The translations under genes were made by a program, and so were the position numbers. A stretch of 64,000 nt of DNA, taken from NCBI GenBank assembly GCA_964481775.1, contig CAYZUX010000002.1, positions 20,221-84,220 on the forward strand, written 5' to 3'. Source of the DNA: an uncultured bacterium (GTDB taxonomy: Bacteria > Hinthialibacterota > Hinthialibacteria > OLB16). Below the pieces are notes generated by a model that did no database searches, was not told the DNA's origin, and saw only the letters and a list, made by a program, of their open reading frames with translations. Positions 7,997 to 33,306 of this stretch are shown piece after piece. Every line of letters starts with the position of its first letter. The stretch's first letter is position 1.

Positions 7997-10099
7997 ATGT
8001 CTGAAAAAGAGTCGGAAACGGAAATTCTGCTCAGGCAGGCAATCCGGCACCATCAGAAAGGACAGGTCGATGCCGCCGAAGCTCTTTACCAACGTATCCT
8101 GAATAGCAATCCTCAACACCCTGATGCGCTGCATCTCCTGGGAATCATCCACCATGGCAAGGGGGATTATCAAAAGTCTCTCGAACTCATTGGCCAGGCA
8201 GTCATACTCAGACCTCACCTCGCCAGTTTCCAGAACAGTTTGGGAAATACGCTGCTCAGCCTGAAGAATTATGAAGAAGCTCGTAAATGTTATGAACAGG
8301 CACTCTTGATTCAACCAGATTATCCTGATGCACTCAGTAACCTGGCCCACCTGGAGTATCTCTGTCATCATGATCCTGCAGCTGAAGTTCTTTACAGGAA
8401 AGTCATAGAAATTCAACCCGGGAAGGCAGAAGCCTTCTTTCAGCTTGGCCGAGTTCTTTTCCGTCTTGGAAAATTGAGTCAGGCTGCGGAGGCCTTTGGC
8501 AGTTCCATCGCCCTGCGCCCCAATCACTCAGACTCCTATCTGCAGTTGGCGATGGTGCTACATGCGCTTGGGATGAACAGGGAAATTGTCATCATCCTGC
8601 GCCGGCTGATGGAATTTGACCGGAATAATCCAAAAGCCTGGACTTATCTGACGAGTGCTTATGAGACATTGACACAGTATGTGGATGCACTCAATTGCAT
8701 CCAGGAAGCGGAGGGTCTCTTTCCCAATGAACCCATCGTGATTCGTGAGCTCGGGAACGTATATTACGCACTGGGGGATCTTGAGAGGGCCAGGGAGTCA
8801 GTCCTCAAAGCCTTGGAGATCAATCCCAATCTCCCGGAGACCTATTCACAGCTGCTCTTTATTCAGACCCATTCCCCCGATGTATCCCCCGAGGAACAAT
8901 TCCGTGAACATCGTGCCTGGGCGGATCGTTTTGAGGCGCCGTATCTCGGATTAACCCCTGTGTTCCCCAATTCCCCTGAACCCGAAAGAAAACTCCGTAT
9001 CGGGTACGTTTCCCCTGACTTCAAAAAACATTCTGTGGCCTATTTTATCGAACCTGTTCTCATGTCGCATGATACCAGTCAATATGAAACATATTGTTAC
9101 ATGAGTTCCGCCTTCCGAGATAAAACCACCGAACGGATTCAATCAGTGGCAAGCCATTGGAGATCGATTGCGGGAGTTCCCGATGAAGGAGTCCTGGAGA
9201 TCCTCCGGGAGGATCAGCCTGACATTCTTGTAGATTTGTCCGGACATACCTCTCAAAACCGGCTTCCCCTTTTTGCCAGGAGAGCAGCCCCGATCCAGGT
9301 TGCCTGGATCGGTTATCCGAACACCACTGGCATGACCCACATGGACTACCGCCTGGTGGATAAATGGACCGACCCGGAGGGTATTGCAGATGATTTTCAT
9401 AGCGAAAAACTAATCCGCTTACCGCATGGTTTCTCGGTGTACCTCCCCCCATCTGACAGTCCCGCTCCGGTGGAAGAACTACCGGCGGATGAAAGAGGTT
9501 GGATCCTGTTCGCCTCCTTCAACAACCTTCCCAAAATCAACGATCGCGTGGTCGAAACATGGTCGGCCATTTTGAATCGTGTCCCCGGCTCGCGCCTGCT
9601 GATTAAGTGTAAGCAGATGGGGGATGAAGCCACCCGGAAAGTGGTCGCCAGCCGTTTCGCCAAATGGGGCATTTCCGAGGGGCGTATCTTGAACATGTCA
9701 TATGTTGCGGAAACCGCCGGTCATCTTGAAGCCTATAACCAGGTGGACATCGGCCTGGACACCTTTCCTTTCAATGGCGCCACGACCACCCATGAGGCCG
9801 TGTGGATGGGAGTTCCCGTAATTACTCTCGCTGGGGAGCGCCATGCCGGGAGAGTTGGGGTGAGTATCCTCAACCGCCTTGGTATGCCGGAGCTGATCGC
9901 TGATACCCGGGAAGAATATATCCAGATTGCCGTGGATCTGGCTCATGACCGGGACAGGCTGCGAAAACTTCGGACCGGAATGCGCCAGCGGGTTCTTTCC
10001 TCAAGCCTGGTGGACAAGGTCCTGATTACCCGATCGGTCGAGGAAGCGTACCGGAAGATGTGGCGGGAATGGTGCACTTTGGAGAGGCAGTTGGCGTAG
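7997..10099 (+). CDS. TPR-repeat protein with C-terminal GT41 (O-GlcNAc-transferase/SPINDLY-like) glycosyltransferase domain
   Basis: N-terminal tandem TPR motifs (AEALYQRILNSNPQHPDALHLLGIIHHGKGDYQKS...). The C-terminal half carries GT41-like RIGYVSPDFKKHSVAYF, then VAWIGYPNTTG and FNGATTTHEAVWMGVPV. Confidence 0.8.
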   Translation: MSEKESETEILLRQAIRHHQKGQVDAAEALYQRILNSNPQHPDALHLLGIIHHGKGDYQKSLELIGQAVILRPHLASFQNSLGNTLLSLKNYEEARKCYEQALLIQPDYPDALSNLAHLEYLCHHDPAAEVLYRKVIEIQPGKAEAFFQLGRVLFRLGKLSQAAEAFGSSIALRPNHSDSYLQLAMVLHALGMNREIVIILRRLMEFDRNNPKAWTYLTSAYETLTQYVDALNCIQEAEGLFPNEPIVIRELGNVYYALGDLERARESVLKALEINPNLPETYSQLLFIQTHSPDVSPEEQFREHRAWADRFEAPYLGLTPVFPNSPEPERKLRIGYVSPDFKKHSVAYFIEPVLMSHDTSQYETYCYMSSAFRDKTTERIQSVASHWRSIAGVPDEGVLEILREDQPDILVDLSGHTSQNRLPLFARRAAPIQVAWIGYPNTTGMTHMDYRLVDKWTDPEGIADDFHSEKLIRLPHGFSVYLPPSDSPAPVEELPADERGWILFASFNNLPKINDRVVETWSAILNRVPGSRLLIKCKQMGDEATRKVVASRFAKWGISEGRILNMSYVAETAGHLEAYNQVDIGLDTFPFNGATTTHEAVWMGVPVITLAGERHAGRVGVSILNRLGMPELIADTREEYIQIAVDLAHDRDRLRKLRTGMRQRVLSSSLVDKVLITRSVEEAYRKMWREWCTLERQLA

Positions 10100-10144
10100 C
10101 GATATGATTCGCCATTTGCACGCTCACCCGTGTGAATAAATTCG

Positions 10145-11272
10145 CTACTCCCTGTATTGACTGAAGAACTCCGCCAGCCGGTCTCCGAGGACCTCCATGC
10201 TGTAATGATCGACAGCAGTCAGACGCGCATGACGGGAGATGCTTTTCCTCAGCTCGTGATCCCTCGCCAAAGTAAGCATGGCATCGGCCATTCCATCCAG
10301 GCTGTTCACCAGCAAGCCGTTTTCACGATCACGGATCACATAACCGACCTCTCCAATATTGGAGGCCACGACCGCAAGTCCTGTTGCCAGATACTCGAAA
10401 AGTTTGGTGGGTGATTTGCTCCTGACCCACTCGTTGTCCACAGCGAAGGGAAGGATACCCACATCTGCCTCCCGCAAGATGCTAGGCATGGCTTGAGGCG
10501 GGAACCAGCCGTGAAAGATGATCGGAACATGGTCATAATGGGTCTTGGTAAACTCCACCAGCCTGTGCCAATGAAAGCCACCTCCCACAATCATCATCCG
10601 GCTGTTGGGAAACTCCCGGTTGACTCTCTCGAAGGCCTGAATGGCCAACACCACGCAGTTGAAGATTTCATCTCCCCATACAATCCCATTCCACAGGTAG
10701 GTGAGCGGTGCATCGGGCGAGTGGTCTTCGCGTGGCGGGTGGAAATCACCGGTGTCGACACCCGTCTCGATCCGGGTTACCCGTGGGTTGAGCGGACGCA
10801 TGTAATCCTCAAGGGCATGGCTGCTGACCACGCAGCCCGCCGCACGGCGCGCCATCTTCTCGGTGATCACATCCCATTTGTGCGATCCAAAAAGAAGCCG
10901 GTTCCAACGCCCACGATGGAAGAAGTTGGAGAGCGGAACATCATAATCATCATAGTCCAGGATGAAGCGTTTACGCAAAAAACGGTGTAGCAGGAATGGG
11001 GCGGCGGAGTGGAAATGGACTTTCTGGACATACAGGAAATCAGCATGCTTGAGCAGGAGTTTCCAGGTGGCACGCAACACCAGCTTCATCTTGTCCCGGT
11101 CACGCAGGTGGGCATACATGTCCTCCTCGCGCAGATGTTCAGCCAGGTGGTCCTTGAATGAAAAGACCTCGGTCTCGAAACCTCTTTCCTTGAGTGCCTT
11201 GGCGAACCCATAGCACCGGACCCGGGTATGGGGGTATTGCATCCCGCTATGGCCAACAAAAACAATCTTCAT
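10145..11272 (-). CDS. Glycosyltransferase family 4 (GT-B, group 1)
   Basis: MKIVFVGHSGMQYPH N-terminal fold. EX7E-type motif SKSPTKLFEYLATGLAVVAS. ATGA overlap with the upstream rhomboid-like gene. Confidence 0.7.
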   Translation of the reverse strand: MKIVFVGHSGMQYPHTRVRCYGFAKALKERGFETEVFSFKDHLAEHLREEDMYAHLRDRDKMKLVLRATWKLLLKHADFLYVQKVHFHSAAPFLLHRFLRKRFILDYDDYDVPLSNFFHRGRWNRLLFGSHKWDVITEKMARRAAGCVVSSHALEDYMRPLNPRVTRIETGVDTGDFHPPREDHSPDAPLTYLWNGIVWGDEIFNCVVLAIQAFERVNREFPNSRMMIVGGGFHWHRLVEFTKTHYDHVPIIFHGWFPPQAMPSILREADVGILPFAVDNEWVRSKSPTKLFEYLATGLAVVASNIGEVGYVIRDRENGLLVNSLDGMADAMLTLARDHELRKSISRHARLTAVDHYSMEVLGDRLAEFFSQYRE

Positions 11273-12426
11273 CCGGTTCCCCGAAAAGGCCTCCCCTCGA
11301 CTTCCTTCACTTGCTCGATCAGATCGATCACCTCGCCAAAGCGATGGTGATCCTTATACCTGTCATAAAGGTTCCTGAGAAGGTCTTTGGCCTCCTGGAT
11401 ATCTCCCAACCGGTGAAGCGCGATTCTCGAAAGACGAAGTCCGGCTTCGAAGGTCACATTCACATCATTCTCTGTCCGGAGAACATCCCGGTAAACCGAA
11501 CCGGCTGCAAGGACATCGCCCAGAACCGGAAGCTGATTGGCAAGGTCCATCCTTTCACCGGTAGTCACTGGGAGAGAATTCTCTGTCTTGCGGGTTCTAC
11601 GATAGATTTCAAAGGCTGCTTTTGGAACATCCGCCTTAAGGGCTGACTGGAAATTCCGGTAATCCAGTTTGACTTGTTTCCGTAACTGGATCTCCTCCAG
11701 GCGTTGGCGTGAATGTTCAAGAATTCGCGACCTGGGGAGATAACGTACCCACAAGGCAATCCCGGCGCCCGCAAGGAAGCCACCCAGTGGAACCGTGTAA
11801 CTGGCCACCGAGAGATCCCCCATCCAGTAGGACTCACCAAGTTTCAGCGAGAGCCAGATGGGGATACAGGCAATGGCCGGGAGGGTAATGGTATCCTTGA
11901 CTGGCTGGTACATGAAGTGAATCAGCCAGACAAACAGAAACCGGCATTCGAGGTTTGGCAGGAGGAACAGCTGCGCCGCAAAGAGAGCGGTGACAAGCGA
12001 ATCGGCGCCGGTCATAGAGTATGCACCACCAGCATAATCCGCGTAATACCACAGTCCCCAGGAATATGCCCAGCTCCCCGCGACAGCTCCAGACATGAGT
12101 AGAAGGACATAGCGTCGCCAGCCAAGCCGTTCCTCGACATAGCACCCGAAAAGCCAGAGAAAGATCAGATTGAGAATCAGGTGGAAAACATTCGTGTGAA
12201 CCAGAGAGCTGGTGAGGTAGCTCCACGGGTGGGGGTTGTTGCCGGTGTAAGCGAAGAGGCGAATGACCGCATCACGACTCCCGGCCTGAAAATCCGCGAA
12301 GGTCTCGCCAACCCAATAGACAAAAAGGATAAACCAGATCAGGCACAATGCGGCCAGCAGTCCATAGGTTGCCCTCGGGACCTCTTGGAGAGGCGTCTCC
12401 GCAGCGACCGGGAGGATAATGAACAT
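11269..12426 (-). CDS. Rhomboid-like polytopic membrane protein with C-terminal TPR-like domain; catalytic His apparently missing
   Basis: TM2 motif LVHTNVFHLILNLIFLWLFG (H..HL..N). TM4 LLLMSGAVAG carries the candidate Ser. The TM6 position reads VPLGGFLAGAG with no His. Soluble TPR-like C-terminus. Confidence 0.5.
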   Translation of the reverse strand: MFIILPVAAETPLQEVPRATYGLLAALCLIWFILFVYWVGETFADFQAGSRDAVIRLFAYTGNNPHPWSYLTSSLVHTNVFHLILNLIFLWLFGCYVEERLGWRRYVLLLMSGAVAGSWAYSWGLWYYADYAGGAYSMTGADSLVTALFAAQLFLLPNLECRFLFVWLIHFMYQPVKDTITLPAIACIPIWLSLKLGESYWMGDLSVASYTVPLGGFLAGAGIALWVRYLPRSRILEHSRQRLEEIQLRKQVKLDYRNFQSALKADVPKAAFEIYRRTRKTENSLPVTTGERMDLANQLPVLGDVLAAGSVYRDVLRTENDVNVTFEAGLRLSRIALHRLGDIQEAKDLLRNLYDRYKDHHRFGEVIDLIEQVKEVEGRPFRGTG

Positions 12427-12433
12427 GGAGAGT

Positions 12434-13945
12434 TCACCCCCGCCAGGCTGGCAGGATGACGGAAAAAGTACTGCCTTTCCCGTATTCGCTCTGAACTGTC
12501 AGCCTTCCGCCATGAGCATCCACTATCGACTTAGCGATGGAAAGCCCCAGGCCTGTTCCAGAGATTTTGCGAGTTTCGGGGCTGCGAACACGGAAGAAGC
12601 GTTGGAAAAGACGGGCCTGATCCTCAGGCTGAAGCCCGATGCCACTGTCAGTCACCTTAAGAATGACAGTCTCACCACAGGATTCACCGGAAACCTCGAC
12701 AGCCCCTCCCTCTGAGGTGTATTTGATGGCATTACTGAGCAGATTAGTGAGCACCTGTAGAAGGCGGTCGGAATCCCCCGCCGCATGGGGGGCACCCGAA
12801 ACCTGTTTTGTGAGTGATATGTTGCGGTTTGCCGCTTCATTACGAAAGGAAAGGACGGCGAAGTTGATCAGGTACTCCAGGTCCACATCCCCACTGTTCA
12901 TTTCCACCTTCCCGGCCTCCAAACGGGAAAGGTCAAGCATATCATCCACCAACGCCGCCAGTTTGGCTCCATTCCGTTTTGCAACTGATAGAAAATTGGC
13001 TTGCTCTTCTCTGACCGGATGAGAAGGATCCGTCAACACCAGATCGATGTAACCGATAATGTTGGCCAATGGTGAGCGGATCTCGTGGGAGACAATGGAG
13101 ATCAGGTCAGTCTTCATCCGGTCCAGTTCGGCCTGTTTGGTCACATCACGAAGATTCAGGACAACCCCCCCCTCCTCGGAAGACCCTTGCCTGTGCCGGA
13201 TCGGAGCAAGGGAAAGCTCGACCACTTTCTCCTGGAGGTCGAGGCTGAACCTGGCAGATTCGCCCTCTCCCGGATTGGGCCCCTTTTTTTCAAGCATCTG
13301 GGCGATCAATGAAATCTTGCCCCCGGGAGGACAGTCCTCCAGAGAGAGGCCAAGCACCTCGCCCGGATCCAGGTCGAGAATCCGGCAGGCGGCCTCATTG
13401 ATCTGGCTGATCATTCCGCCGGCATCGATCACCAGGAGCCCCTCTCCCATGCTGGAGAGAACCGCTTCAGTCTTGCCTTTCTCCTCCGCCAGCTGAGCTG
13501 TTTTATCAAGCAGTTCAGCACTGAGTTGATGGACTGTCTGTTGCACGGCCGAAAGCCGGGTTGTCAGGTGAAGTGCCTGCAAGGCCAATCGTTCCGTGGT
13601 TTGGGTTTCCTTCTCACGGGGATGGATGACCATCAGAAAAGCGGGCCAACCGGGCTCCCGGAACACGTTGATTTGAGACGGGAAAGAAAAACCATCCTGA
13701 TTCTTCAGATCCAACTCACACACGAATTCCCCTTCAACGATTCCATGAAGCTCCACCGCCAGTTCATTGGCAAAGGTCTTATCAACAATCAGATCGGTCA
13801 GGCTGTTGCCCTCCAAAGCATTTCCACACCCCAGGAGAAGCTCCGCAGCCGGATTAGCCCATTGAATCCGGCAATCCCTGTCTACCTCCAGGACTGGATC
13901 CCGGATGCTGGAGAGCAATGAAGAGAATGAGAGCAGATCAGTCAT
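12434..13945 (-). CDS. Soluble sensor histidine kinase (two PAS domains, HisKA, HATPase_c)
   Basis: H-box SHEIRSPLANIIGYIDL. G-boxes VTDSGIGLQPED and GTGLGLSIAKSIV. No TM segment. Its start overlaps the upstream solute-binding-protein stop by 1 nt. Confidence 0.85.
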   Translation of the reverse strand: MTDLLSFSSLLSSIRDPVLEVDRDCRIQWANPAAELLLGCGNALEGNSLTDLIVDKTFANELAVELHGIVEGEFVCELDLKNQDGFSFPSQINVFREPGWPAFLMVIHPREKETQTTERLALQALHLTTRLSAVQQTVHQLSAELLDKTAQLAEEKGKTEAVLSSMGEGLLVIDAGGMISQINEAACRILDLDPGEVLGLSLEDCPPGGKISLIAQMLEKKGPNPGEGESARFSLDLQEKVVELSLAPIRHRQGSSEEGGVVLNLRDVTKQAELDRMKTDLISIVSHEIRSPLANIIGYIDLVLTDPSHPVREEQANFLSVAKRNGAKLAALVDDMLDLSRLEAGKVEMNSGDVDLEYLINFAVLSFRNEAANRNISLTKQVSGAPHAAGDSDRLLQVLTNLLSNAIKYTSEGGAVEVSGESCGETVILKVTDSGIGLQPEDQARLFQRFFRVRSPETRKISGTGLGLSIAKSIVDAHGGRLTVQSEYGKGSTFSVILPAWRG

Positions 13946-15057
13946 CAGCGCTTTTTCCCCTGTCCACGCACCTGTTCATCCCAACGGCGCATCCAGTCAT
14001 TCATCCGTTCCAGGTACACACCCCAATCCAGTGACAGGGACACATAGTTCAGGTTGCGCATCCATTCAGGCATTGACTCTGCAGGTAGGCCTTGACGGGC
14101 CGGGATCCTGTAAAAGGGATCACCCGCGAGACGGATAGCGCTGGTGGTGGAGGTCACGAACTCGTAATAGGCCCTGGCTGCATGGGGGTGTTGGGCACCT
14201 TTGATCAAGGCGATCCCATCCAGGATGACAGGGCATCCACTCTCTGGAAAGACAACTTCGAAGGGATATTGATAGCGGCTTTTCTGCATCATGATGTCAG
14301 ACAGAGTCCAGACGCTGAGTGCTCCGACCCGTTGTGCGACCTTGCGGAACAGGAGCTCTCCACCGGAAAGATACTCCTTCACATTCCGGTCCACCTCCAG
14401 CATCCACTCGAAGGCATCGTCCTCATTCCCGGTCAGTTTGACCGACTGTTGAATCTTGCCAAAAAAGATCGCTCGCATGGTATCGGAGGGGATGGGATAA
14501 CGCAGAAGAATCTGGTCTTTGTAACGGGGGTCGGCCAGATCCTCCCAGTCGGTGGGCGCATTTTCGGGAGAGATCAACTCTGAATTGTAGAAGATGATCT
14601 CCGGCGAGAGGAAAGTGGGATACCAGAGGTCCTGGGGATCATGCTGAGCCGGGCTGACTTGATCCGCCCAGGAGGGTTTGTAGCTTTCCAGAAGGCCTTC
14701 TTTCGCCGCCACCATGAAAGTGGTGTGACCCGCTCCCCACCAGACATCCGCGAGCGGATTCTGGTGTTCATTCCGAACTCTTTCCAGGCATTGTTGGGAG
14801 GGCAGGTACAGGAAATCGACCACCGTTCCAGGATATTGGGCTTCAAAACGCTCCTTGAAGTCACCGAGGATTTCCTTTCCATGCGGCGAGTAAACAATCA
14901 CCTTCTCCTCAATCCCCAGGGGGGTTACCGCGGGATGTTCAATCCCTCCACCACACCCAGCCAGGCAGAGTATGATCCCAATGGCCGCAAACCGCACATT
15001 AACAAGGATCAGGTGGTGTTTCATGGGACCCAGTATATCCGCAGGAACATGGTTCAA
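13945..15057 (-). CDS. Periplasmic solute-binding lipoprotein (ABC-type SBP, Fe3+/polyamine-like family 1); no permease or ATPase nearby
   Basis: Lipobox IILCLAGCGGG. SBP-like VIVYSPHGKEILGDFKERFEAQYPGTVVDFLY...ADVWWGAGH. Confidence 0.6.
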   Translation of the reverse strand: MNHVPADILGPMKHHLILVNVRFAAIGIILCLAGCGGGIEHPAVTPLGIEEKVIVYSPHGKEILGDFKERFEAQYPGTVVDFLYLPSQQCLERVRNEHQNPLADVWWGAGHTTFMVAAKEGLLESYKPSWADQVSPAQHDPQDLWYPTFLSPEIIFYNSELISPENAPTDWEDLADPRYKDQILLRYPIPSDTMRAIFFGKIQQSVKLTGNEDDAFEWMLEVDRNVKEYLSGGELLFRKVAQRVGALSVWTLSDIMMQKSRYQYPFEVVFPESGCPVILDGIALIKGAQHPHAARAYYEFVTSTTSAIRLAGDPFYRIPARQGLPAESMPEWMRNLNYVSLSLDWGVYLERMNDWMRRWDEQVRGQGKKR

Positions 15058-15063
15058 TAGAGC

Positions 15064-16230
15064 CTACCTGGTCCGCGGTCCTGATTTGTTTCCCTCCACA
15101 TGGCAGTAGATACAGGGACGGTCACGGAGCATGTTTTTATCACTTGTCCAACCGCGTGGATGAGGATTGAAAGCATCACTGAAGACTGAGTGACACTGCA
15201 CGCAATTGCTATCACGTCCCTGGTCATGGCAAGCCGCACAGGTGGCGATCTCGCGCCGTGCAACAAGCCCATGGAAGCTGGGAGAAGCGGGATCGGAATA
15301 GCCGACCGGATGCGGCGAGGTGAGGAACTGATCCTGGGCGGGATTGTCCGCCACCCCATGCTGCTGATGACATTGCTCACAGTAACTGGGGCGATGGCAC
15401 GTGATACAAAGGGCCGGGTCATTGCGAGCCTCGATGAAGTGGCGCGACAGGTAGTCCGCGGAGTGGATGAACTGCCGGTCCGTACGTCCATGGTGTTTCA
15501 TGTTCGCGGCGAGCTCATCACTCTGATTGGCATGACACTCCATGCAGTCATCCTGGGTGTGACACTGGACACAGACACCTGTCTGGGACCAGGTGTACTG
15601 CTGATGATCGCGAAGGAAGTCACCTTCATGGCTGAAACGAGACATGGGTTTCAGTCCGATCGAGTAGAGATCCTTGTGGCAGTTCATGCATTGCAGGTCC
15701 TGGTATTGCTTTTCATGGTAATGACAGTTCAGGCACACCTGCATCACGGGGATGTTACGGTCAGACATGCGGGTACTGCGGCGGTTGGTGGTGTGACAAT
15801 ACTCACACCCTTTCTCCATGCCGGGCAGGCCGATGTGCTGCTTGTGAGAAAAATGAAGCGCGGTACGTACCGGCGGGACCTTCGCTTCGGGAATAATGTG
15901 GCACTTGCTGCACTCATCGTTGTTGAACCACTCCTGATGGCATTTCAGGCAGGTTTTCATGGGAGGTGTATGCTGACCGGTATCATCAGTGGATTCCTTG
16001 ACCGAACGGTGGCAGTAGTCGCAGTCCATCCCCACCTCCGGGCCGAGGTGAAGGCTGTGACTGTAATGATGGGTCTCATAGGGGGTAGGGCGGGGCGGCA
16101 ACCACCCGGACTTCATCAGCACCGCACAGCCAGCCAGCAGGATGATGGCGCTGATCAGCATCAGGGGGAGCGCTTGAAAAAGGTACCAGCCCAAGTTGCG
16201 ATGAAGTCTTTCTATCATGGGCATGCTCAC
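15064..16230 (-). CDS. Multiheme cytochrome c lipoprotein (13 CxxCH motifs)
   Basis: 13 CxxCH motifs in 388 aa (CDYCH, CLKCH, CSKCH, CEYCH, CLNCH, CMNCH, CVQCH, CMECH, CITCH, CEQCH, CAACH, CVQCH, CIYCH). N-terminal signal with lipobox LLAGC. Confidence 0.85.
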   Translation of the reverse strand: MSMPMIERLHRNLGWYLFQALPLMLISAIILLAGCAVLMKSGWLPPRPTPYETHHYSHSLHLGPEVGMDCDYCHRSVKESTDDTGQHTPPMKTCLKCHQEWFNNDECSKCHIIPEAKVPPVRTALHFSHKQHIGLPGMEKGCEYCHTTNRRSTRMSDRNIPVMQVCLNCHYHEKQYQDLQCMNCHKDLYSIGLKPMSRFSHEGDFLRDHQQYTWSQTGVCVQCHTQDDCMECHANQSDELAANMKHHGRTDRQFIHSADYLSRHFIEARNDPALCITCHRPSYCEQCHQQHGVADNPAQDQFLTSPHPVGYSDPASPSFHGLVARREIATCAACHDQGRDSNCVQCHSVFSDAFNPHPRGWTSDKNMLRDRPCIYCHVEGNKSGPRTR

Positions 16231-17684
16231 TCGTAGGACCTGTAGAATGCCGGAACCGGAAGATCGGTGTGTGGAAGCCAGCGCCCTCCATACCCAGGAT
16301 AGTCTCCAATCAGATCCTGGGTGACACCACCCACCATCCGCTTGTCAAACCAGTAGGTGACTGAGAACAAGACCTGGAACTCCGTGTTATCGACCGCACT
16401 ATCCACATACCGTAATGTACCCACCGCTTCGAGGCGTTTGGTGGGACGGTATCCGACACTCTGCGCCAAAGAGAAACTGTGCGGAGATCCATTCACCGGG
16501 TCACGATAGAGGGTCGCCGCTGCCTCCCAGGATGTCCACAGCCAGGAGGTATAATAATGGTGGTCAGTGATCCGGAAGCGGTCAAATCCATTATCGATGG
16601 ATTCGTAGCGGTCATCGCCCTCGATGAATGCAATCCCCTGCTCCGGCGGTTCGACATGGCGCAACTCCAGCGAGAGAGAACTGTCATCCTGGTAATAATA
16701 ACGGGCTCCCAGACGGTACTCCCAATAGCTCTTCCCGGGCACATGGAACAGGGGATTCGCCCCCCCTGGGCTATCGGAATCGTAACGAACTGCCTCCAAC
16801 CAGAGCCTCCAGTCACGGTCCGGGGTGAACTCGAGTCCAGCAGCGATTTCCTTAATCTCATCATTGGAAAAAACCGACAGCACCGAGGTCTGGGGTAAGA
16901 GGGCCCCTGGAATCGTTTCATCATAGCTGAGAGTGAACTTCGCACAGGGATGGAATTTCAAACCAGCAAATAATCCCAGGTCGATGATATCATCCGTGAT
17001 GGTGTCATAGGTGACATGCTCGGAAAGCTCGACCCAGTAAAGGGGACGCCAAAAGAAATCCTGCGTGAATGCCTCCCGATCCAGGTCGCCGTCATCGGTC
17101 CGGTAGACATAGGAGAGTCCCACTTCGGAACCCAGGAAAGGCCTTACCCAAACGCGGCCCCCACCGACACGGTCATTGCTTTTGCCGCCATAGTCCGAAA
17201 CCACGGGGAGTCCACCGAAAAGAGAGTAACCATGGCCACCATCCAGTTGTTTGGACCACAAGAGCCCATCGAACCTCTCATATAGACCACCCTCAAAGAC
17301 ATACTGACGTCCAAAGCGGGCGTAGGTGTTGGGCTGACGTGGATCCTGCCACTGAAAATACCCAGTCAATAACTCGGATTCAAAAGAGTCATCGGCCTGG
17401 TAGTAGGCATAATCCGACTGATCCCAGAGATCCTGACGTACCCAGCCAGATCCATGAAAAGACCATCCGCTCCGATTAAACTCTGAGAGATGGAGGGTCA
17501 TGTACTGCCGGATCGGAAGGAAATAGTCTTCATCAGGATCAAGGAGACGTTCTTCGCGGAGGTAGACATGCGAACGGAGCTGGCCTTCCATCCGGAGGGC
17601 ATGAACAGGAGGTATGTTCACAATCCCCCAAACGAGACTCAGTCCCACCAGAAAGCAAAACTGCCTCACCCTCCAAGGAGGCAC
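16227..17684 (-). CDS. Putative outer-membrane beta-barrel protein (porin-like), translationally coupled to the multiheme cytochrome
   Basis: Signal peptide ending VHA. Y/W/D/G-rich with alternating amphipathic stretches (TEFQVLFSVTYWF, LEAVGTLRYV). 4-nt overlap with the cytochrome start. No family assignment possible by eye. Confidence 0.45.
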   Translation of the reverse strand: MPPWRVRQFCFLVGLSLVWGIVNIPPVHALRMEGQLRSHVYLREERLLDPDEDYFLPIRQYMTLHLSEFNRSGWSFHGSGWVRQDLWDQSDYAYYQADDSFESELLTGYFQWQDPRQPNTYARFGRQYVFEGGLYERFDGLLWSKQLDGGHGYSLFGGLPVVSDYGGKSNDRVGGGRVWVRPFLGSEVGLSYVYRTDDGDLDREAFTQDFFWRPLYWVELSEHVTYDTITDDIIDLGLFAGLKFHPCAKFTLSYDETIPGALLPQTSVLSVFSNDEIKEIAAGLEFTPDRDWRLWLEAVRYDSDSPGGANPLFHVPGKSYWEYRLGARYYYQDDSSLSLELRHVEPPEQGIAFIEGDDRYESIDNGFDRFRITDHHYYTSWLWTSWEAAATLYRDPVNGSPHSFSLAQSVGYRPTKRLEAVGTLRYVDSAVDNTEFQVLFSVTYWFDKRMVGGVTQDLIGDYPGYGGRWLPHTDLPVPAFYRSYE

Positions 17685-17870
17685 ATCGAGACCTCCAAAA
17701 AGAAGTTTCCCCCTCCCGATGCCGGGATCGATTATGCCCCAATAACTTGCTTTGGGGAATCATCTAAAGACATAATAGACGGACCTGTATCAATCACCTC
17801 AGATTGAGGGACTCCAGTAAGTAACATCATTCCTGCAGAGAAGGAGGCAACGGTTACGCGCACCATCCTG

Positions 17871-18662
17871 GTGGTTGAGGAAAGGGGGGTATCCAAAACC
17901 ACCCTCGAATCGCTGGTCCCACAAGAGGGATACAAAGTTGATTCTGTTCCTGGCTATTTTGAGGCTCTTTATAGAATCTCCAGGGAACGTTTTGATATCG
18001 TCCTTGTCAGTCAATCCTTGAAAGAAATGAGTGGGATTGAGATCCTTACCACGGCCAAATCGCTCGGTTTTGTTGAAAGCCATGAAAAAGGAACCCGTCC
18101 AGTGTTTATCCTTTTTTGCGAAAAGAGCGATGAGAAGGTCATTCTCCAGGCTTGGTCAGCCGGTTTTCGCCACGTGTTGTCCAGAGGTATCACCTCAGAG
18201 CGGTTTCGTGAGATCGTTGATGAGTGCCTGGGTCCTCCAGAGGAACCATCCATCCAGGAAGAGGTAACCGAGGCAGAGCAGAACCAGGAAGAAGAGGCTG
18301 CTTCAGAAAACGTCTCTCTGCCGATTCATCGTGGTGTTATCAGTCTTCTGCGGATCGAGGATCTGGGAGACACCCTTGTCTATTACCTTGGTGGAAATCT
18401 TAGCAAGGGAAGTGGATACCTGGAGCTGAGAGAATCGATCGTCACCCGCTTGAAGCAAGGAAAGGTCAAACAGGTTGTCCTCAACTGCAGTGAAGTTTCT
18501 TACGTGAACTCCAGTGGAATCGCCGGCCTGGTTTCCCTGAGGAACGAAATTGCGAAGCTGGGAGCGGAGATGTCCCTGATTGCTGCCCAGGAACAAGTCT
18601 TCAATGTATTGGCAAGGCTCGATTTGCTCCGTACCCTCCAATACCGTCCAACCGCCCGCTGA
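17871..18662 (+). CDS. Pseudo-receiver (REC-like, phospho-acceptor Asp replaced) fused to STAS/anti-sigma-factor-antagonist domain
   Basis: N-terminus TILVVEE...DIVLVSQSL resembles CheY KILVVDD...DLVISDWNMP, but the acidic pair and phospho-Asp are substituted. The C-terminal STAS domain keeps the phosphorylatable SSG (VNSSGIAGLV). Start codon is uncertain (GTG at 17871). Confidence 0.55.
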   Translation: MVEERGVSKTTLESLVPQEGYKVDSVPGYFEALYRISRERFDIVLVSQSLKEMSGIEILTTAKSLGFVESHEKGTRPVFILFCEKSDEKVILQAWSAGFRHVLSRGITSERFREIVDECLGPPEEPSIQEEVTEAEQNQEEEAASENVSLPIHRGVISLLRIEDLGDTLVYYLGGNLSKGSGYLELRESIVTRLKQGKVKQVVLNCSEVSYVNSSGIAGLVSLRNEIAKLGAEMSLIAAQEQVFNVLARLDLLRTLQYRPTAR

Positions 18663-18694
18663 GGCATTACCGTTCGGGTGTAACCCAAAACGAA

Positions 18695-21685
18695 TCAATA
18701 ACTCAAAGCGGCTTGAGGAATTATTTCCCGGGTTTTGCCAGGAACCTGCCAGTAGAGTCTGAGCGCCTCACCCCCTCCAATCGTGTCGGAGTAGAGGATA
18801 CGAATGGGATGCTTCCCTTGAGTCATCTGGAGAGGTGCCTGGAGGTAACGGTTTCTCTGCTCTTTGCCACCGGCTGTTTCGACCACTTTCTGTCCATCGA
18901 TTTCCACCAGGGCATAGTCCCAGGCCTCGGTGCCAATCTGGTAACTGCCCTCCACCGGACAATCCAGAAAACCTTTCCACTCCATGCTGAGTGGGAATTT
19001 GTAGGGGGGATTCCAGCGGTAATTAATGAAAGGATCCACCCAGACAAATTCCGGTTTTCCCTCCCACTTACGTCCACCATGCCAGTAGGTCATGCGCAAT
19101 CCCCGCGGTAACATGCCCCGGTCATGGAATTGTTCGCCCCCCAATTCCTGCCAATCCCCGCCTCCAAGTGGAATGTACATCACCCGGGTCAGAGCCGTAT
19201 AGGTCTGAGATGCGAAGGTAAACTCGATTTGATGGGCTCCAGCCAGAAGATCCCTGGCGACTTCAGCGGTTCCTGCTCCAGGACTTGCATCCAAAATCTT
19301 TTCAGCGTCGATCCACAGAGTGAATCGATCGGGTGTCTCGATCCGGAAACGATAACCACCTTGCCTTCCCTCGGGGATGACCCACATCGCCTTGCCCTTG
19401 ATCTGGAAAGGTGCAGGTAAAACCAGTTCCGCCGGGTTAAAAGTGAGGACGGGTTGTGTCACCGAGGCCTTGAATGGAACCCCCTTATCCGAGCCTGAAA
19501 GATCAAGGGAAAAGCCACGATGCTTGAGCTTGATTTCAGAGGGAACGCGGTACCACCGGAAGATAGTCCCTCCCCATGGGTCCTTGGCATCCGTGCCAGT
19601 CACCTCCGGACCATACAGCCACTCGATCCATGCCATCTTGTCGGGACGATTCTGGGGTTCCATCACAATGTAAAGGGCATCTTCATCAGGGGCCCCATGC
19701 GCGGGGAGTTCCTGTTGCACGAACAGATGGTTCCGCCAGACCCCCTCCTTGTTGAGCAGCTTGAGCGAGTTATGACCATTCGCATCACTGACCGCATAGA
19801 ACTTGCCCTGCTGAGTGTTGACGAATTTAGCCATATCCACGAACTTGGCATCAAAATGAACATAGGGATCCCTTTTGGGGAGTTGGTCACGGAAATAGAG
19901 ATGGTACTCCCCCCACCAGAAGAACCCGATGATCACCATGGCGCTCACCCACCCCATCCAACGGAGAGGCTCGGTAAGCCACCTCCGGCCAGGAAGACAG
20001 TCATCGGCAAGTGTGAGGCAGGCGATCCCCACCATACGCAATGCCACTGCTGACCAGATACAAATGACGGGGATAACACAGATCGCGCGGAGTGTATTGG
20101 GCGCCTCGATGGAGAGGACCATTGGCAGAAGCATGGCGGTGAACCATCCCAGTGAAAACAGACCGAGACGGCTCCGCCAACGGACCAGGGCCCACATCAT
20201 CCCCAATGGGAACAGAATCCCGGGAATGGGATGGACCATCGGGGCAAGCGAGTGATTATGACGTGGATTCACATCTCCACGAATGTGGAACATCCGGAAG
20301 GTCAGTGTGAGGTTGTCTTTGATCCTCTGCCAGTTGGCACGCCAAGGTTCATCCAGATTCACAATACTGACCATATTGAGCCGTTCCGCGAACACCTCGG
20401 GATGATCTCTTCGGAAATCAATCATCTCCTTGGCGCAGAAAAATGCCGCGGCACCAAAGAGGAGGAAACCCACCAGGTTCCAACGCCACAACTGGCGTTG
20501 CATGAACCAGCGGAGTCCGACAAAGCACGCCAGAACACCAGGGAAAAGGTACAGCGGTTTGTATGAGTAAATACTCAATCCAAAGCAATAACCCCCAACC
20601 AGCCAGATGGGGGCGGTTTTGAGGACATGCCAGATCCATTGTTTCCAGGTGGCACGGAAACTCACGCTTCCACTTCCCTCCGGCGGGGGAACGGGAAATT
20701 CATCTTTTGACTTGAAAGCGAGGAAAAAGAACAAGGCGGTGGCGGTAATGATGAGTGGTGCTTCAATGGCGTCATAAGCCACGCGCGAAAAGTTGACATG
20801 CCAACGGAAAGCCGCCAGGAAGGCCGCACCCAGAAGTGCCGTGGGAGCATCACACAGCCAGCGCAACAACAGGTACAACACGAGTACACCCAGAACTCCG
20901 GCGATCATGGTCGGAAGGCGGATGCTGAATATCGAAGTGCCCAGCCATTTCATCGATAAGGCGATCTGATACATGTGGGCGGTGGCCTTACCGAAACCCT
21001 GGGGGGTGAATACAGGAACCTCGATGGATTCAAGTTGACGATTGAGGGAATCACGTTCCCCTTTGTAACGGTTGACTTCTCCCTGGAGCCTTTGCTTTTC
21101 AGCCCCATCGGTGGCTTTTTCCTCTTCGCTGGTCTTTTCCTTCAGGTTCCGGTTTGCTTCAGAAAGTTTCTGGCGCAGTTCCTTGATGTGTGCCTGATTC
21201 TCCGGTTTCCATTCCTGGAGGAAATCCCGCCCGATCATCGCGTTGGTACTTTCGTCGTAATGCAAACCATACGGAAACTCATTCCCTCTATGGAAACGCA
21301 TTACGATCGCCATCAGGAGGATCAATCCCAACAAGACCAGTTCAGTTTGCCAGGGGAGGGATGCCTTACGACGGCTTGGCAGGTCAGGTACCAGAAGAAG
21401 ACCCAGAGCGAAGAGACCCATGGCGCCCAGAAGCAGGTAATAGGGGCGTGCAGATCTCTGATAATCCACCCAGGGAAAATGATCCGGGTACTGAGGATTC
21501 ACAAGCGGTTTGAGAGTAATCCCCTTGTAGGCAACGAAATCGGGGGAACACATTCCAATCAGATCACAAAGATACAGGACGCTGTAACCAGCCAGGATCA
21601 TTCCCGCGAGAAGCAGAACAATGGCGGGAAAGAGACGGAGGCCCCTGGGAAAGAAAGAAGGAGTGGCTGGAAGGGTGGGTTCCAT
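18695..21685 (-). CDS. Polytopic GT-C-fold glycosyltransferase (PMT/ArnT-like) with coiled-coil insert and two C-terminal PA14 domains
   Basis: About 12-14 N-terminal TM helices. First-loop HYDESTNAMIGRD (GT-C DE motif). PA14 signatures GGYRFRIETPDRFTLWIDAEKILD...AGAHQIEFTF and GSYQIGTEAWDYALVEIDGQKVVET...HPIRILYSDTIGGGEALRLYW. Confidence 0.55.
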   Translation of the reverse strand: MEPTLPATPSFFPRGLRLFPAIVLLLAGMILAGYSVLYLCDLIGMCSPDFVAYKGITLKPLVNPQYPDHFPWVDYQRSARPYYLLLGAMGLFALGLLLVPDLPSRRKASLPWQTELVLLGLILLMAIVMRFHRGNEFPYGLHYDESTNAMIGRDFLQEWKPENQAHIKELRQKLSEANRNLKEKTSEEEKATDGAEKQRLQGEVNRYKGERDSLNRQLESIEVPVFTPQGFGKATAHMYQIALSMKWLGTSIFSIRLPTMIAGVLGVLVLYLLLRWLCDAPTALLGAAFLAAFRWHVNFSRVAYDAIEAPLIITATALFFFLAFKSKDEFPVPPPEGSGSVSFRATWKQWIWHVLKTAPIWLVGGYCFGLSIYSYKPLYLFPGVLACFVGLRWFMQRQLWRWNLVGFLLFGAAAFFCAKEMIDFRRDHPEVFAERLNMVSIVNLDEPWRANWQRIKDNLTLTFRMFHIRGDVNPRHNHSLAPMVHPIPGILFPLGMMWALVRWRSRLGLFSLGWFTAMLLPMVLSIEAPNTLRAICVIPVICIWSAVALRMVGIACLTLADDCLPGRRWLTEPLRWMGWVSAMVIIGFFWWGEYHLYFRDQLPKRDPYVHFDAKFVDMAKFVNTQQGKFYAVSDANGHNSLKLLNKEGVWRNHLFVQQELPAHGAPDEDALYIVMEPQNRPDKMAWIEWLYGPEVTGTDAKDPWGGTIFRWYRVPSEIKLKHRGFSLDLSGSDKGVPFKASVTQPVLTFNPAELVLPAPFQIKGKAMWVIPEGRQGGYRFRIETPDRFTLWIDAEKILDASPGAGTAEVARDLLAGAHQIEFTFASQTYTALTRVMYIPLGGGDWQELGGEQFHDRGMLPRGLRMTYWHGGRKWEGKPEFVWVDPFINYRWNPPYKFPLSMEWKGFLDCPVEGSYQIGTEAWDYALVEIDGQKVVETAGGKEQRNRYLQAPLQMTQGKHPIRILYSDTIGGGEALRLYWQVPGKTREIIPQAALSY

Positions 21686-30816: not shown

Positions 30817-31317
30817 ATGCAACGACGGAGATTTCTTGAATCAGTGGTGGCCACCCTGGGGGCAGGTGCACTCGCCATTTTCGCTGCGGTGACAGGAACA
30901 CTCCAGGTGCTTTCTCCCATTTTCCACAAGACCAACCGCGAAAGCGAGTGGTTCTCCCTCGGGAAACAGGATGAGTTTACTCCAGGTCTTCCGACACCCA
31001 AAGTCATTCACATTGTGGTTCAGGATGGCTGGCAAACGCGGAAACAGAGCCAGATGGTCTATGTACTCCTGAAAGAGGGGAAACCAGTCGTATTCTCTTC
31101 AGTCTGTCCCCATCTGAGCTGTCCAGTCTCCTTTCAAGAGGAAAAAAAGAGATTCCATTGCTCCTGTCATCAATCCTATTGGGATGCGGATGGACAACGG
31201 CTCGCTGGTCCCGCCGCGCGGGGACTGGACTCACTTCCCATCCGGATTGAGGGTGATGAAGTGTTCTGCAGGTGGGTGCAATACCGTTCAGGACTCTCCG
31301 AGGCGGTTGAGGTCTGA
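30817..31317 (+). CDS. Rieske [2Fe-2S] subunit of a cytochrome bc-type complex, Tat-exported
   Basis: Twin-arginine leader MQRRRFLESVVATLGAGALA. Rieske boxes CPHLSCPV and CSCHQSYWD. Confidence 0.85.
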   Translation: MQRRRFLESVVATLGAGALAIFAAVTGTLQVLSPIFHKTNRESEWFSLGKQDEFTPGLPTPKVIHIVVQDGWQTRKQSQMVYVLLKEGKPVVFSSVCPHLSCPVSFQEEKKRFHCSCHQSYWDADGQRLAGPAARGLDSLPIRIEGDEVFCRWVQYRSGLSEAVEV

Positions 31318-31321
31318 CAGA

Positions 31322-32698
31322 ATGCGCTTCCTTTCAATCTTGAGTGGGTGGATCAACGAACGTACGGGTGTCCGCGCCGTAATCCACTCCCTCCGGGATT
31401 CACCACTTCCCGGGGGTGTCCGCTGGGCAAATACACTTGGCCCAGCTTTGGTGACAACTCTGGTGTTCGAGTGTCTGAGCGGAGTCCTCCTTTCTCTCTC
31501 TTATTCACCCGGCGTCGACTCCGCACATTCAAGTGTCGCTTTCCTCTCCAGGGAAACAACGCTCGGGATGCTCTTCCGAAGCGTGCACTCTTACGGTGCC
31601 CATCTGATTGTGATCCTGATGATTCTGTGTGGTTTGAGGGCGCTCCTTGCCCGTGAGTACACCCGCCCCAGGGAGATTCAGTGGGTGCTGGGACTCGTGC
31701 TGGCAGGGCTGATTATCACCATTGCCACCACCGGCTACCTGTTGCCCTGGGATCAATACGGTTACTGGGGGACTCAAGTCCGGACCTCGATCATGGGGTC
31801 AGTTCCAGTCGTTGGCGAGTATGTCAAAATGGTTGCATTGGGTGGAACAGAGATTGGCAATCTGACCCTGACCCGTTTTTATACCGGGCATGTGGTCCTC
31901 TTTCCGGTGTTGCTTCTCATCGGTTTGATCCTTTACGTAGCTCTGAGGGTGAGGAACGCTTATTCATCCGTGGTGGATCACCCGAATCTGGTCACCACCT
32001 ATTGGCCAGGGCAGGCCTGCCGGGATGTGATGGTAAGTCTTGTAGTTATTGGTTCTCTTTTCCTCCTTGCGTTTTTCATACCGGTGAAACTCGGGAGCAT
32101 CGCCGATCCGCTTGAGACCTACCCAGCACGTCCAGAATGGTATTTCCGTTGGCTTTTTCAAACCTTGAAATATCTCGCCCCCCCCTTTGAGGTGGTTGGT
32201 ACAGTAGTGATCCCTCACGCCATTCTGGTCCTCCTGGCGTTGATTCCATTCATTGACAGAAGGCCCCTGCCACGTTCTGGGAGGAAGATAGTTCTCGGCT
32301 CAGTGGCTCTCCTGGGCCTGGCCTGGGCAATTCTGTCGGGCATTTCGTTCCTTGAGGACTACCGTTCCGGGCATTTCAGGGAAATCGCGATGTGGGAGGC
32401 TCAAGCCGATCCTTCCTTTGATACCGAGGAGTTTTACAAATCCAAATGTAATCGCTGCCATGGACGTGATGGAGCAGGGATGCTTGACAGCACCCCTGAT
32501 TTTACTTCGGGTGATTACTGGTCTGGAGTCCGTTCGGATGTCCGTCTTGTCAAGGCAATTCTTGAGGGTGTTCCCAATCCCGGCATCTCTGAAGATGAAG
32601 TGATGCCCTCTTTCTCGGACTTGATCGGTCCCTCGGAGGCAAAGGCGCTTGTTGAGAGGAAAATCCGCACCTTCGCCCCAAGTGGTGAGGAAGAGTAA
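31322..32698 (+). CDS. Cytochrome b (bc complex) with fused C-terminal mono-heme cytochrome c domain
   Basis: Starts 4 nt after the Rieske stop; the track start at 31184 overlaps Rieske and is rejected. Cytochrome b His motifs (VHSYGAHLIVILMI, TGYLLPWDQYGYWG) and a PEWY motif (ARPEWYF). C-terminal CNRCHG plus Met ligand region VMPSF. Confidence 0.85.
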   Translation: MRFLSILSGWINERTGVRAVIHSLRDSPLPGGVRWANTLGPALVTTLVFECLSGVLLSLSYSPGVDSAHSSVAFLSRETTLGMLFRSVHSYGAHLIVILMILCGLRALLAREYTRPREIQWVLGLVLAGLIITIATTGYLLPWDQYGYWGTQVRTSIMGSVPVVGEYVKMVALGGTEIGNLTLTRFYTGHVVLFPVLLLIGLILYVALRVRNAYSSVVDHPNLVTTYWPGQACRDVMVSLVVIGSLFLLAFFIPVKLGSIADPLETYPARPEWYFRWLFQTLKYLAPPFEVVGTVVIPHAILVLLALIPFIDRRPLPRSGRKIVLGSVALLGLAWAILSGISFLEDYRSGHFREIAMWEAQADPSFDTEEFYKSKCNRCHGRDGAGMLDSTPDFTSGDYWSGVRSDVRLVKAILEGVPNPGISEDEVMPSFSDLIGPSEAKALVERKIRTFAPSGEEE

Positions 32699-32733: not shown

Positions 32734-33306
32734 TTAACGCTGAACACTTGTTCGTTCCGCGATCTCTTCAAGCTTGAGTTCAATCTCAAGCAGTTTCTCG
32801 CGTGTCTTCAGCTCCGCCTGTTCGATGCAATTACGGATCAGGAAGAGCGCGCCCATCAGCAGGTAGACTAATCCGCTCAGAACCATAAACACCGATTTGA
32901 CTGAATCGGGGTGCTTCCCAGCTTCCATCAGGAAGATAATCATCATGGTCAGGGTAACTCCCCAGGCCCAGTTCGCCATCCAGGTGGGGTGTTGCCGACT
33001 CTTGTGGACTCCACCTTTCAGGATCCACACTGCCATGCCCACCCAGGCAAAGGCGAAAGCAGCCCCGATGGCAAAGCCAATGCGAATCAGAGGCGGCAAC
33101 CCTCCTCCAAGCACGGCAGCCGTTGTGAAAGTCACACCCAGACCAACCGAGAGTAGTCCAGTCGCGACCAGGCCCCACTTCCTCATCCCTTTCAGTTCCT
33201 GGTTTAACATCTCAGAAACCTCCTTTTCATATTTCCGCCGATATTCGGGATTGGTTTGTTCCATACGAATTAACTGTTCACGAAGCCGTGTGGGTTCCTC
33301 AGGCAT
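32734..33306 (-). CDS. 4-TM membrane protein co-transcribed with the ECF sigma factor (possible anti-sigma or sensor partner)
   Basis: 8-nt overlap with the upstream ECF sigma gene. Four hydrophobic helices. No ZAS motif. Confidence 0.4.
   Translation of the reverse strand: MPEEPTRLREQLIRMEQTNPEYRRKYEKEVSEMLNQELKGMRKWGLVATGLLSVGLGVTFTTAAVLGGGLPPLIRIGFAIGAAFAFAWVGMAVWILKGGVHKSRQHPTWMANWAWGVTLTMMIIFLMEAGKHPDSVKSVFMVLSGLVYLLMGALFLIRNCIEQAELKTREKLLEIELKLEEIAERTSVQR

Follow-up and report, generated by a model that had tools for sequence, protein, structure and literature searches.

We describe here a barrel-cytochrome gene pair, together with the four genes that follow it on the same strand, in a 64,000-nt stretch of DNA from an uncultured bacterium of the OLB16 lineage (contig CAYZUX010000002.1, positions 20,221 to 84,220; this whole stretch is called the window below). 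Six tightly packed open reading frames (ORFs) lie on the minus strand at 10145–17684. In the order of reading, they encode a predicted porin-like outer-membrane (OM) β-barrel (16227–17684; 485 aa, GTG start), a 13-heme c-type cytochrome of the lipoprotein type (15064–16230; 388 aa, LAGC lipobox with Cys35), a solute-binding protein (SBP) lipoprotein of the FbpA/AfuA/PhnS class (13945–15057; 370 aa, Pfam SBP_bac_6), a soluble two-PAS histidine kinase (12434–13945; 503 aa, two Pfam PAS matches, HisKA and HATPase_c), a rhomboid-domain/TPR membrane protein (11269–12426; 385 aa, Pfam Rhomboid and TPR_6) and a GT4 glycosyltransferase (10145–11272; 375 aa, Pfam Glyco_trans_1_4).

The junctions between these genes are short throughout. 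The barrel and cytochrome genes overlap by 4 nt at GTGA, with an ATG 2 nt past the barrel stop as an alternative cytochrome start; the SBP and kinase genes overlap by 1 nt at TGATG; a 7-nt gap separates the kinase and rhomboid genes, and the rhomboid and GT4 genes overlap by 4 nt at ATGA. An initial annotation of this DNA, made from its letters and ORFs, had described four tightly coupled minus-strand genes continuing into the rhomboid/TPR and GT4 genes, six in all, and the ORFs and junctions confirm this layout. The 6-nt gap that it gave between cytochrome and SBP is right for the distance from the cytochrome stop to the first in-frame SBP start (TTG), but the true SBP start is most likely Met12 (MKHH... 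followed by the LAGC lipobox), with which the gap becomes 39 nt; in a related locus, L009, the near-identical homolog is annotated with this Met as its start and has 358 aa. No GC anomaly was seen across the region when horizontal transfer was weighed.

The barrel protein begins with a signal-peptide-like segment (...PPVHA/LRMEG) and matches no Pfam or NCBIfam family even at E≤10. Its AlphaFold2 model, which is of moderate confidence (pLDDT 62), is all-β with about 22–24 strands, the nearest folds in a fold search are the TonB-dependent-transporter and Occ barrels, and the last strand ends in ...TYWF, resembling a typical β-signal. The modelling supports assignment of the 485-aa ORF to the large OM β-barrels, as the initial annotation had guessed; a soluble β-sandwich, which it had named as the outcome that would overturn the guess, did not appear. 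The lumen would be wide enough for a heme rod, because 22-strand barrels enclose a plug of ~150 residues. A protein search returned only ten close homologs, and a profile of the family recovered 492 representative clusters from 1.8 billion proteins. Residues ~446–485 (16227–16355) form a C-terminal tail of ~40 aa with the clade-conserved motif GYGGRWLPHT.LPVPA.YR; the tail is modelled at very low confidence and is missing in more distant family members, the barrel of locus L007 stopping at the last strand.

The cytochrome contains exactly 13 CxxCH motifs, which leaves about 27 residues for each heme once the protein is mature, and it has no CxxCK. The motif count and lipobox bear out its earlier description as a 388-aa, 13-heme lipoprotein. 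Database homologs number in the hundreds, about 60 of them full-length, of similar size and 30–41% identical. When 30 homologs (31–78% identity) were aligned, 12 CxxCH motifs and 12 further His residues were invariant, and the variable thirteenth motif was CSKCH at residue 107. The invariant further His residues therefore provide one distal ligand per universal heme, which fits bis-His ligation, and together with the absence of CxxCK they argue against an open catalytic heme; judged from these sequence features, the protein looks like an electron wire and not an enzyme. At least 90% of the aligned sequences keep the lipobox Cys35, and roughly 90% of the family members found in the genome scan described below have a Cys of the lipobox type, among the matches listed. 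The family therefore appears to be generally membrane-tethered at the N-terminus, and, on a more speculative reading, this conservation suggests that the whole 12/13-heme family consists of lipid-tethered wires organized unlike MtrA.

Pfam matches of the cytochrome were to Cytochrome_C7 and to MtrC/MtrF domains II/IV. For its N-terminal ~160 residues, the nearest relative by sequence is the pentaheme ActA from Alternative Complex III (profile E 7e-19), and a Foldseek search with the cytochrome model gave ActA (8k9e_A, probability 1.0) as the sole match. Similarities to c7, HMC, HAO, NrfA and MtrA profiles were weak and of the heme-packing kind; those to HAO and NrfA profiles from the PDB (E 3e-7 to 1e-4) covered partial heme-packing segments. 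Membership in a catalytic multiheme reductase family (NrfA, HAO or octaheme) is not indicated, since there is neither a CxxCK motif nor a family-level match. The initial annotation had allowed that the cytochrome might turn out to be a known periplasmic reductase relative such as NrfB or hydroxylamine oxidoreductase, and the reductase-family scores lay far below family level.

We examined conservation of the pair in close relatives, in distant relatives and in a genome-wide scan. The close relatives comprise 11 loci, namely the window and ten further loci (including L001–L003, L009, L010, L022, L136, L137 and L139). In all ten further loci the cytochrome gene comes immediately after the barrel gene, and in most of them the two overlap by 4 nt; outside L009 the cytochromes are 63–79% identical to that of the window, and the barrel of L009 is 94% identical. 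In the distant relatives L004, L005 and L007, a 431–476-aa protein with no Pfam match directly precedes the cytochrome. Alignment to the window barrel with hhalign gave 99.2% (E 7.6e-20) for L007 and 97.4% (E 1e-11) for L004; the L005 protein reached only 21% by hhalign and joined the barrel family in an iterated search.

For the genome-wide scan, species-representative genomes were searched with a degenerate DNA pattern of the family (CA.CH-x7-CxxCH-x8-PHP), which gave at least 119 loci (L013–L131). The family cytochrome was present in 116 of these; it has 13 hemes in 63 loci and 12 in another 38. Adjacency was judged by stop-to-stop distances. Of the 98 loci whose sequence reaches far enough upstream, among the matches listed, 97 have a barrel-family ORF whose stop lies ~1050 nt ahead of that of the cytochrome, and the 4-nt overlap seen in the window is the usual junction. 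The carriers are overwhelmingly Myxococcota (Polyangiaceae, Myxococcaceae, Archangiaceae, Kofleriaceae, Haliangium and Anaeromyxobacteraceae), and the other carriers among the matches listed are a few Planctomycetota, one member of Omnitrophota and one of Thermoanaerobaculaceae (Acidobacteriota). The barrel and cytochrome genes are one conserved, translationally coupled two-gene module across at least four phyla. The earlier proposal that a barrel next to a dense multiheme cytochrome represents a porin-cytochrome architecture is backed by the barrel fold, by this pairing and by the conserved second His ligands. Most of the Myxococcota families whose metagenome-assembled genomes (MAGs) carry the pair are not known as metal reducers, and these bacteria are largely aerobic predators.

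In two of the distant relatives, L004 and L005, large multiheme lipoproteins adjoin the pair; one of those in L004 carries a GSu_C4xC__C2xCH motif, and this locus also has NrfD/Fe-S and NapC/NirT-type quinol modules. Such surroundings are the usual context of extracellular-electron-transfer clusters. Genes for NrfC-like 4Fe-4S proteins (Fer4_11) adjoin the pair in L137 (22–804, just upstream of the barrel) and in L004 (1985–3930 and 13243–15699), and genes for NrfD-like membrane subunits are also found in L004; these NrfC/NrfD-like genes of L137 and L004 are candidates for inner-membrane quinol dehydrogenase partners of the family. In L001, the pair is followed on the same strand (12594–19606) by genes for a class III aminotransferase, ferrochelatase, glutamyl-tRNA reductase, a radical-SAM enzyme and uroporphyrinogen decarboxylase, so that heme biosynthesis genes lie next to the 13-heme cytochrome gene.

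A two-gene organization of this kind is known from the literature. In a survey of porin-cytochrome (Pcc) gene clusters, Shi, Fredrickson & Zachara (2014; PMC4245776) found that three Anaeromyxobacter strains and Ca. Kuenenia stuttgartiensis have clusters of two genes, one cluster per genome, each composed of a porin-like protein and a 338–344-aa cytochrome with 12 or 14 hemes. The two-gene Pcc was proposed to span the OM with no surface cytochrome, and Adeh_3392 of Anaeromyxobacter (Group IV) was more abundant on Mn(IV) (PMC4245776). The window has the same arrangement: the porin-like gene lies directly 5' of a single gene for a 388-aa, 13-heme cytochrome on the same strand, and no second multiheme ORF was found in the 64 kb. 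The initial annotation had held that the combination was not a described unit; as far as its two-gene core is concerned, these clusters of Anaeromyxobacter and Kuenenia show otherwise.

We therefore compared the window with pairs from Anaeromyxobacteraceae MAGs. Against the pair of L076, the cytochrome is 30% identical (E 1e-44) and the barrel 22% (E 3.6e-13). The cytochrome of L029 has 341 aa and 12 hemes and that of L076 has 373 aa and 12 hemes; each has a lipobox and an adjacent barrel, and the nearest named relatives of L029 are proteins of 'Anaeromyxobacter sp.'. By this comparison through the MAG pairs, equivalence of the window pair to the published Anaeromyxobacter Pcc group is strongly indicated. 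Several differences were also found. The window cytochrome has 13 hemes instead of 12, the extra motif being the CSKCH at residue 107; the window barrel has the clade-specific C-terminal tail of ~40 aa; the host belongs to the OLB16/Omnitrophota lineage; and, whereas the published account calls the cytochrome periplasmic, about 90% of the members examined here have a lipobox Cys.

Other known systems resemble the pair less closely. In MtrAB, MtoAB and PioAB, a decaheme cytochrome of the MtrA family sits inside a 26–28-strand barrel of the MtrB family (structure 6R2Q). Compared with MtrB (~650–700 aa), the window barrel is smaller, with 485 aa and about 22–24 strands, and the window cytochrome differs from MtrA in carrying a lipobox, and hence being probably lipidated, and in its ActA-like N-terminal domain. 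The initial annotation had compared the architecture to MtrAB/PioAB/Pcc conduits and had suggested a search for an MtrB/PioB (TIGR03509) match, and membership in the MtrAB/PioAB families did not hold: the window barrel has no NCBIfam match at E≤0.01, none of the 10 barrel clade members matches TIGR03509 at E≤10 (the only two matches were single-member ones to unrelated families), and the cytochrome, with 13 hemes and not 10, scores 18.3 bits against MtrA/DmsE TIGR03508, for which the cutoff is 192.2. The OmbB-OmaB-OmcB system of Geobacter sulfurreducens shares the porin-then-cytochrome order and the proposed trans-OM electron transfer, and the large multiheme lipoproteins beside the pair in L004 and L005 are a further likeness. 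It has, however, three components, a porin, the 8-heme periplasmic OmaB and the 12-heme surface lipoprotein OmcB, whereas the window encodes one barrel and one 13-heme protein with no surface cytochrome. ActA (6F0K, 8K9E, 6LOD, 6BTM) is similar to the N-terminal ~160 residues of the cytochrome, the membrane tether included, but it has 5 hemes and belongs to an inner-membrane quinol:cytochrome c complex with ActB-F, whereas the window cytochrome has 13 hemes, no Act partner genes and an obligate OM barrel partner. He et al. (2017; PMC5615132) described clusters of porin and multiheme cytochrome genes in polysaccharide-degrading Verrucomicrobia and proposed for them a role in electron transfer to humics; these clusters are alike in the PVC-superphylum polysaccharide-degrading host and in the porin gene beside a multiheme cytochrome gene, and they differ, by their description, in having 8 conserved hemes and often an additional extracellular multiheme cytochrome (PMC5615132).

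On this basis, we consider it probable that the pair is a two-component trans-OM porin-cytochrome electron conduit of the Anaeromyxobacter-type two-gene Pcc kind. The barrel of ~22–24 strands would sheathe the N-terminally tethered 13-heme cytochrome, presumably inserted in its lumen, and the closely packed, mostly bis-His hemes would serve as an electron wire. This wire would carry electrons across the OM between quinol-linked carriers of the periplasm or inner membrane, as the presumed feeders, and an extracellular partner, which might be, for example, Fe(III)/Mn(IV) minerals, humic quinones or another cell, and the conduit would operate with no separate surface cytochrome.

Several points weigh against this interpretation. 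Complex formation and trans-membrane electron transfer would follow by analogy from MtrAB and the Geobacter Pcc, and no functional or biochemical study of the family was found in the literature. The barrel model is of moderate confidence, and its nearest folds, the TonB-dependent-transporter and Occ barrels, do not point to MtrB in particular. A structure search with the cytochrome model found ActA and nothing usable for MtrA, and the profile similarity to MtrA is weak (E 7e-5). The link to the published clusters, including that of Adeh_3392, runs through the Anaeromyxobacteraceae MAG pairs. In the window, no genes for an inner-membrane quinol dehydrogenase or for cytochrome c maturation adjoin the pair. 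Finally, Myxococcota is a largely aerobic phylum, and because many carriers belong to it, metal respiration may not be the general role of the family.

Two alternative assignments of the pair itself should be weighed against the trans-OM conduit. In one of them, the barrel is a translocon or anchor that displays the lipoprotein cytochrome, in the manner of Slam or of MtrB for MtrC, and the cytochrome is a surface terminal reductase or oxidase. The lipobox Cys conserved in about 90% of the family speaks for such a display, as MtrA/PioA-type inserted cytochromes are not known to be lipoproteins, and obligate pairing fits a transporter and its cargo as well as a sheath and its wire. The barrel has, however, no similarity to the Slam or BamA/TamA families, a trans-membrane electron path would still be needed although most loci encode none next to the pair, and a 12–13-heme chain would be longer than a surface cap needs; we regard surface display as unlikely. 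The other assignment makes the cytochrome a periplasmic or inner-membrane carrier or enzyme, either an ActA/NrfB-like relay or a multiheme reductase, and the barrel an ordinary substrate porin. Alignment of the N-terminal ~160 residues, including the hydrophobic N-terminus, with the membrane-anchored pentaheme ActA is consistent with this, as are the weak profile matches to HAO and NrfA heme-packing motifs. For a generic porin, however, the near-absolute adjacency and start/stop overlap in at least four phyla would be unexpected; the 12 extra invariant His residues and the lack of CxxCK oppose an open catalytic heme, the ActB-F genes are not adjacent, and the reductase-family scores are far below family level, so that a relay or enzyme of this kind is very improbable.

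A third alternative concerns the genes downstream: the barrel, cytochrome, SBP and PAS kinase would form one unit in which the SBP or the PAS domains sense the substrate or redox state of the conduit. Neighbouring genes among the six overlap or lie at most 39 nt apart, and no terminator-like site above chance lies between them, which makes co-transcription plausible; the SBP class includes Fe(III)-binding proteins, and a PAS kinase is found near the pair in L005 (divergent), in L010 (upstream) and in 10 of the at least 119 scan loci. On the other side, the kinase is cytoplasmic and the SBP periplasmic with no transducer linking them, and the sole receiver domain nearby has no phospho-acceptor Asp. 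The gene neighbourhoods also count against one unit, as SBP and kinase follow the pair in only two of the 11 close relatives (the window and L009, an OLB16-binned contig), no SBP homolog was found among the matches listed for the scan loci, and the SBP-kinase-rhomboid/TPR-GT4 string is conserved elsewhere with neither barrel nor cytochrome upstream. The integrated conduit-sensor unit is thus largely refuted by the gene-neighbourhood data, and we give such sensing very little likelihood.

These neighbourhoods deserve a fuller description. L009 also keeps the order of the rhomboid/TPR and GT4 genes, and in the other nine close relatives the pair is flanked by heme biosynthesis genes, DegT, opposite-strand genes or toxin-antitoxin genes. 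Kinase homologs were present in 10 of the scan loci, among the matches listed. When metagenome contigs were scanned with the SBP, four loci with 63–65% identity to it came up; two of these, L132 and L135, have the same SBP-kinase-rhomboid/TPR-GT4 string, and L134 has the SBP and kinase before the contig ends. No barrel or cytochrome gene lies upstream of the SBP in the metagenome loci, for which the upstream sequence extends over 6 kb in L134, 830 nt in L132 and 559 nt in L133; in the layout of the window, 559–830 nt would already show the C-terminus of the cytochrome. Because the pair and the SBP-kinase-rhomboid/TPR-GT4 string each occur apart from the other, the six-gene string is two independently conserved modules placed end to end. 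The profiling of the four-gene block in related genomes that the initial annotation had proposed was thus positive for L009 and negative for nine of the 11 close relatives and for the scan loci, and its claim of four or six genes wired to a sensor as one unit is not sustained.

The gene products of the second module agree with their earlier description. The SBP carries an LAGC lipobox, and no ABC permease or ATPase gene turned up in the window when its other large ORFs were compared with Pfam, as had been observed for the nearer surroundings. The kinase has two PAS stretches, HisKA and HATPase_c but no hydrophobic segment (maximum Kyte-Doolittle value 1.37 over 19 residues), so the earlier reading as a dual-PAS histidine kinase with no transmembrane segment was correct. 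With no membrane partner encoded and no transmembrane segment in the kinase, the string does not belong to the SBP-coupled transport or sensing systems. The best PDB relatives of the SBP are AfuA (4r72), the pyridoxal phosphate (PLP)-binding protein P5PA and Fe(III) SBPs. A role as an Fe(III) binder tied to iron redox was considered and not adopted, as the ligands of the best solved relatives differ, being sugar-phosphates, PLP, 2-aminoethylphosphonate (2-AEP) or Fe(III). The string contains no transporter and no response regulator. It may represent an envelope- or glycan-related signalling module, and its four genes may be co-transcribed with the pair and yet not be part of the conduit. It is improbable that the conduit and this module have been fused in this lineage into one functional transcription unit, with conduit expression coupled to or read by the module; if such a fusion were functional, one possibility would be that the lipoprotein of the FbpA/AfuA class binds Fe(III), or some other substance produced at the conduit, in a glycan-degrading bacterium.

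Upstream of the barrel gene, a −10-like CATAAT hexamer (17731–17736, minus strand) lies 46 nt 5' of the start codon, followed by a conserved GAGGGGG box (17717–17706) and a GGAGG Shine-Dalgarno sequence (17696–17692). The CATAAT and GAGGGG columns are invariant in an alignment of the upstream regions of the window, L009, L003 and L001. This stretch is likely to be the promoter and 5' untranslated region of the pair, and the two conserved boxes therefore suggest that the pair has its own promoter. A consensus promoter/terminator scan of 9900–18800 gave nothing above chance, and an Rfam scan gave no match; the operon boundaries therefore rest on spacing and conservation only.

On the other side of this region, a gene on the plus strand (17871–18662; Pfam Response_reg and STAS) encodes a receiver-STAS protein and is divergent from the barrel gene. 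The same divergent arrangement occurs in five of the 11 close relatives, namely the window, L009 (1115–1972), L001 (8903–9730), L003 (8987–9817) and L136 (4406–5338), and the gene is absent from the at least 119 distant scan loci, among the matches listed. In the alignment, the window, L009 and L003 have Ser (VSQSL) at the position of the phospho-acceptor Asp of the receiver, whereas L001 keeps the Asp; the window and L009 also have EE for the acidic DD pair. The product appears to be a pseudo-receiver partner-switching protein of the anti-sigma-antagonist type, and this lineage-specific neighbour of the pair is a possible candidate for its regulator. Phosphorylation of this protein by the soluble kinase was considered and rejected; the protein is an unlikely kinase substrate because of the Ser at its acceptor position (window, L009 and L003).

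Glycan-degrading genes abound in the rest of the window; Pfam matches of large ORFs include GH106, GH92, BNR proteins and a rhamnogalacturonase-like protein. The neighbourhood of the pair is also rich in envelope glycosylation genes: just past the receiver-STAS gene, a 996-aa membrane protein with a PMT_2/ArnT-like glycosyltransferase region and a C-terminal PA14 domain is encoded on the minus strand (18695–21685), and on the far side of the GT4 gene a 700-aa TPR and GT41 (O-GlcNAc-transferase-like) protein is encoded on the plus strand (7997–10099). At a distance of 13.5 kb from the pair, a stand-alone gene on the plus strand (31184–32698) encodes a 504-aa bc1/b6f-type cytochrome b, with N- and C-terminal parts, fused at its C-terminal end to a cytochrome c domain with a single heme. 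The gene has no evident Rieske gene next to it, and an extracytoplasmic function (ECF) sigma factor gene (33299–33859) and a likely anti-sigma gene on the opposite strand adjoin it. This fusion protein could be a quinol-side feeder for periplasmic cytochromes.

The organism named 'Omnitrophica bacterium OLB16' is now placed in Ca. Hinthialibacterota. The initial annotation had judged such a pair unexpected in a glycan-foraging PVC-like genome, and published work makes it less surprising: besides the clusters of Verrucomicrobia mentioned above (PMC5615132), Omnitrophica are reported to have homologs of CbcL and ImcH (PMC6295460), and metal reduction is predicted for OLB16 MAGs, according to a work cited in PMC9324843. 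In the literature on porin-cytochromes of Omnitrophota/Omnitrophica, no description of this barrel-cytochrome pair in that lineage was found; PMC12057145 deals with flavin-based extracellular electron transfer and has no bearing on it. The pair is most probably a member, from the OLB16/Hinthialibacterota-Omnitrophota lineage, of a known but biochemically uncharacterized porin-cytochrome type.

These results have several meanings for the family and its hosts. The barrel and the 12/13-heme lipoprotein together form one coherent and very widespread family, found in at least 119 species-representative genomes and with 492 barrel clusters, and as the barrel family has no Pfam or NCBIfam model, a profile of it would improve annotation of extracellular electron transfer. 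Being small (two genes) and well defined, the family is a good target for structural work. The six-gene string also gives the caution that tight gene packing by itself does not define a functional unit. For a polysaccharide-degrading member of the OLB16/Omnitrophota lineage, the pair provides a plausible means of electron exchange with extracellular acceptors such as minerals and humics, and if such exchange occurs, carbon flow in anoxic habitats would shift from fermentation towards respiration.

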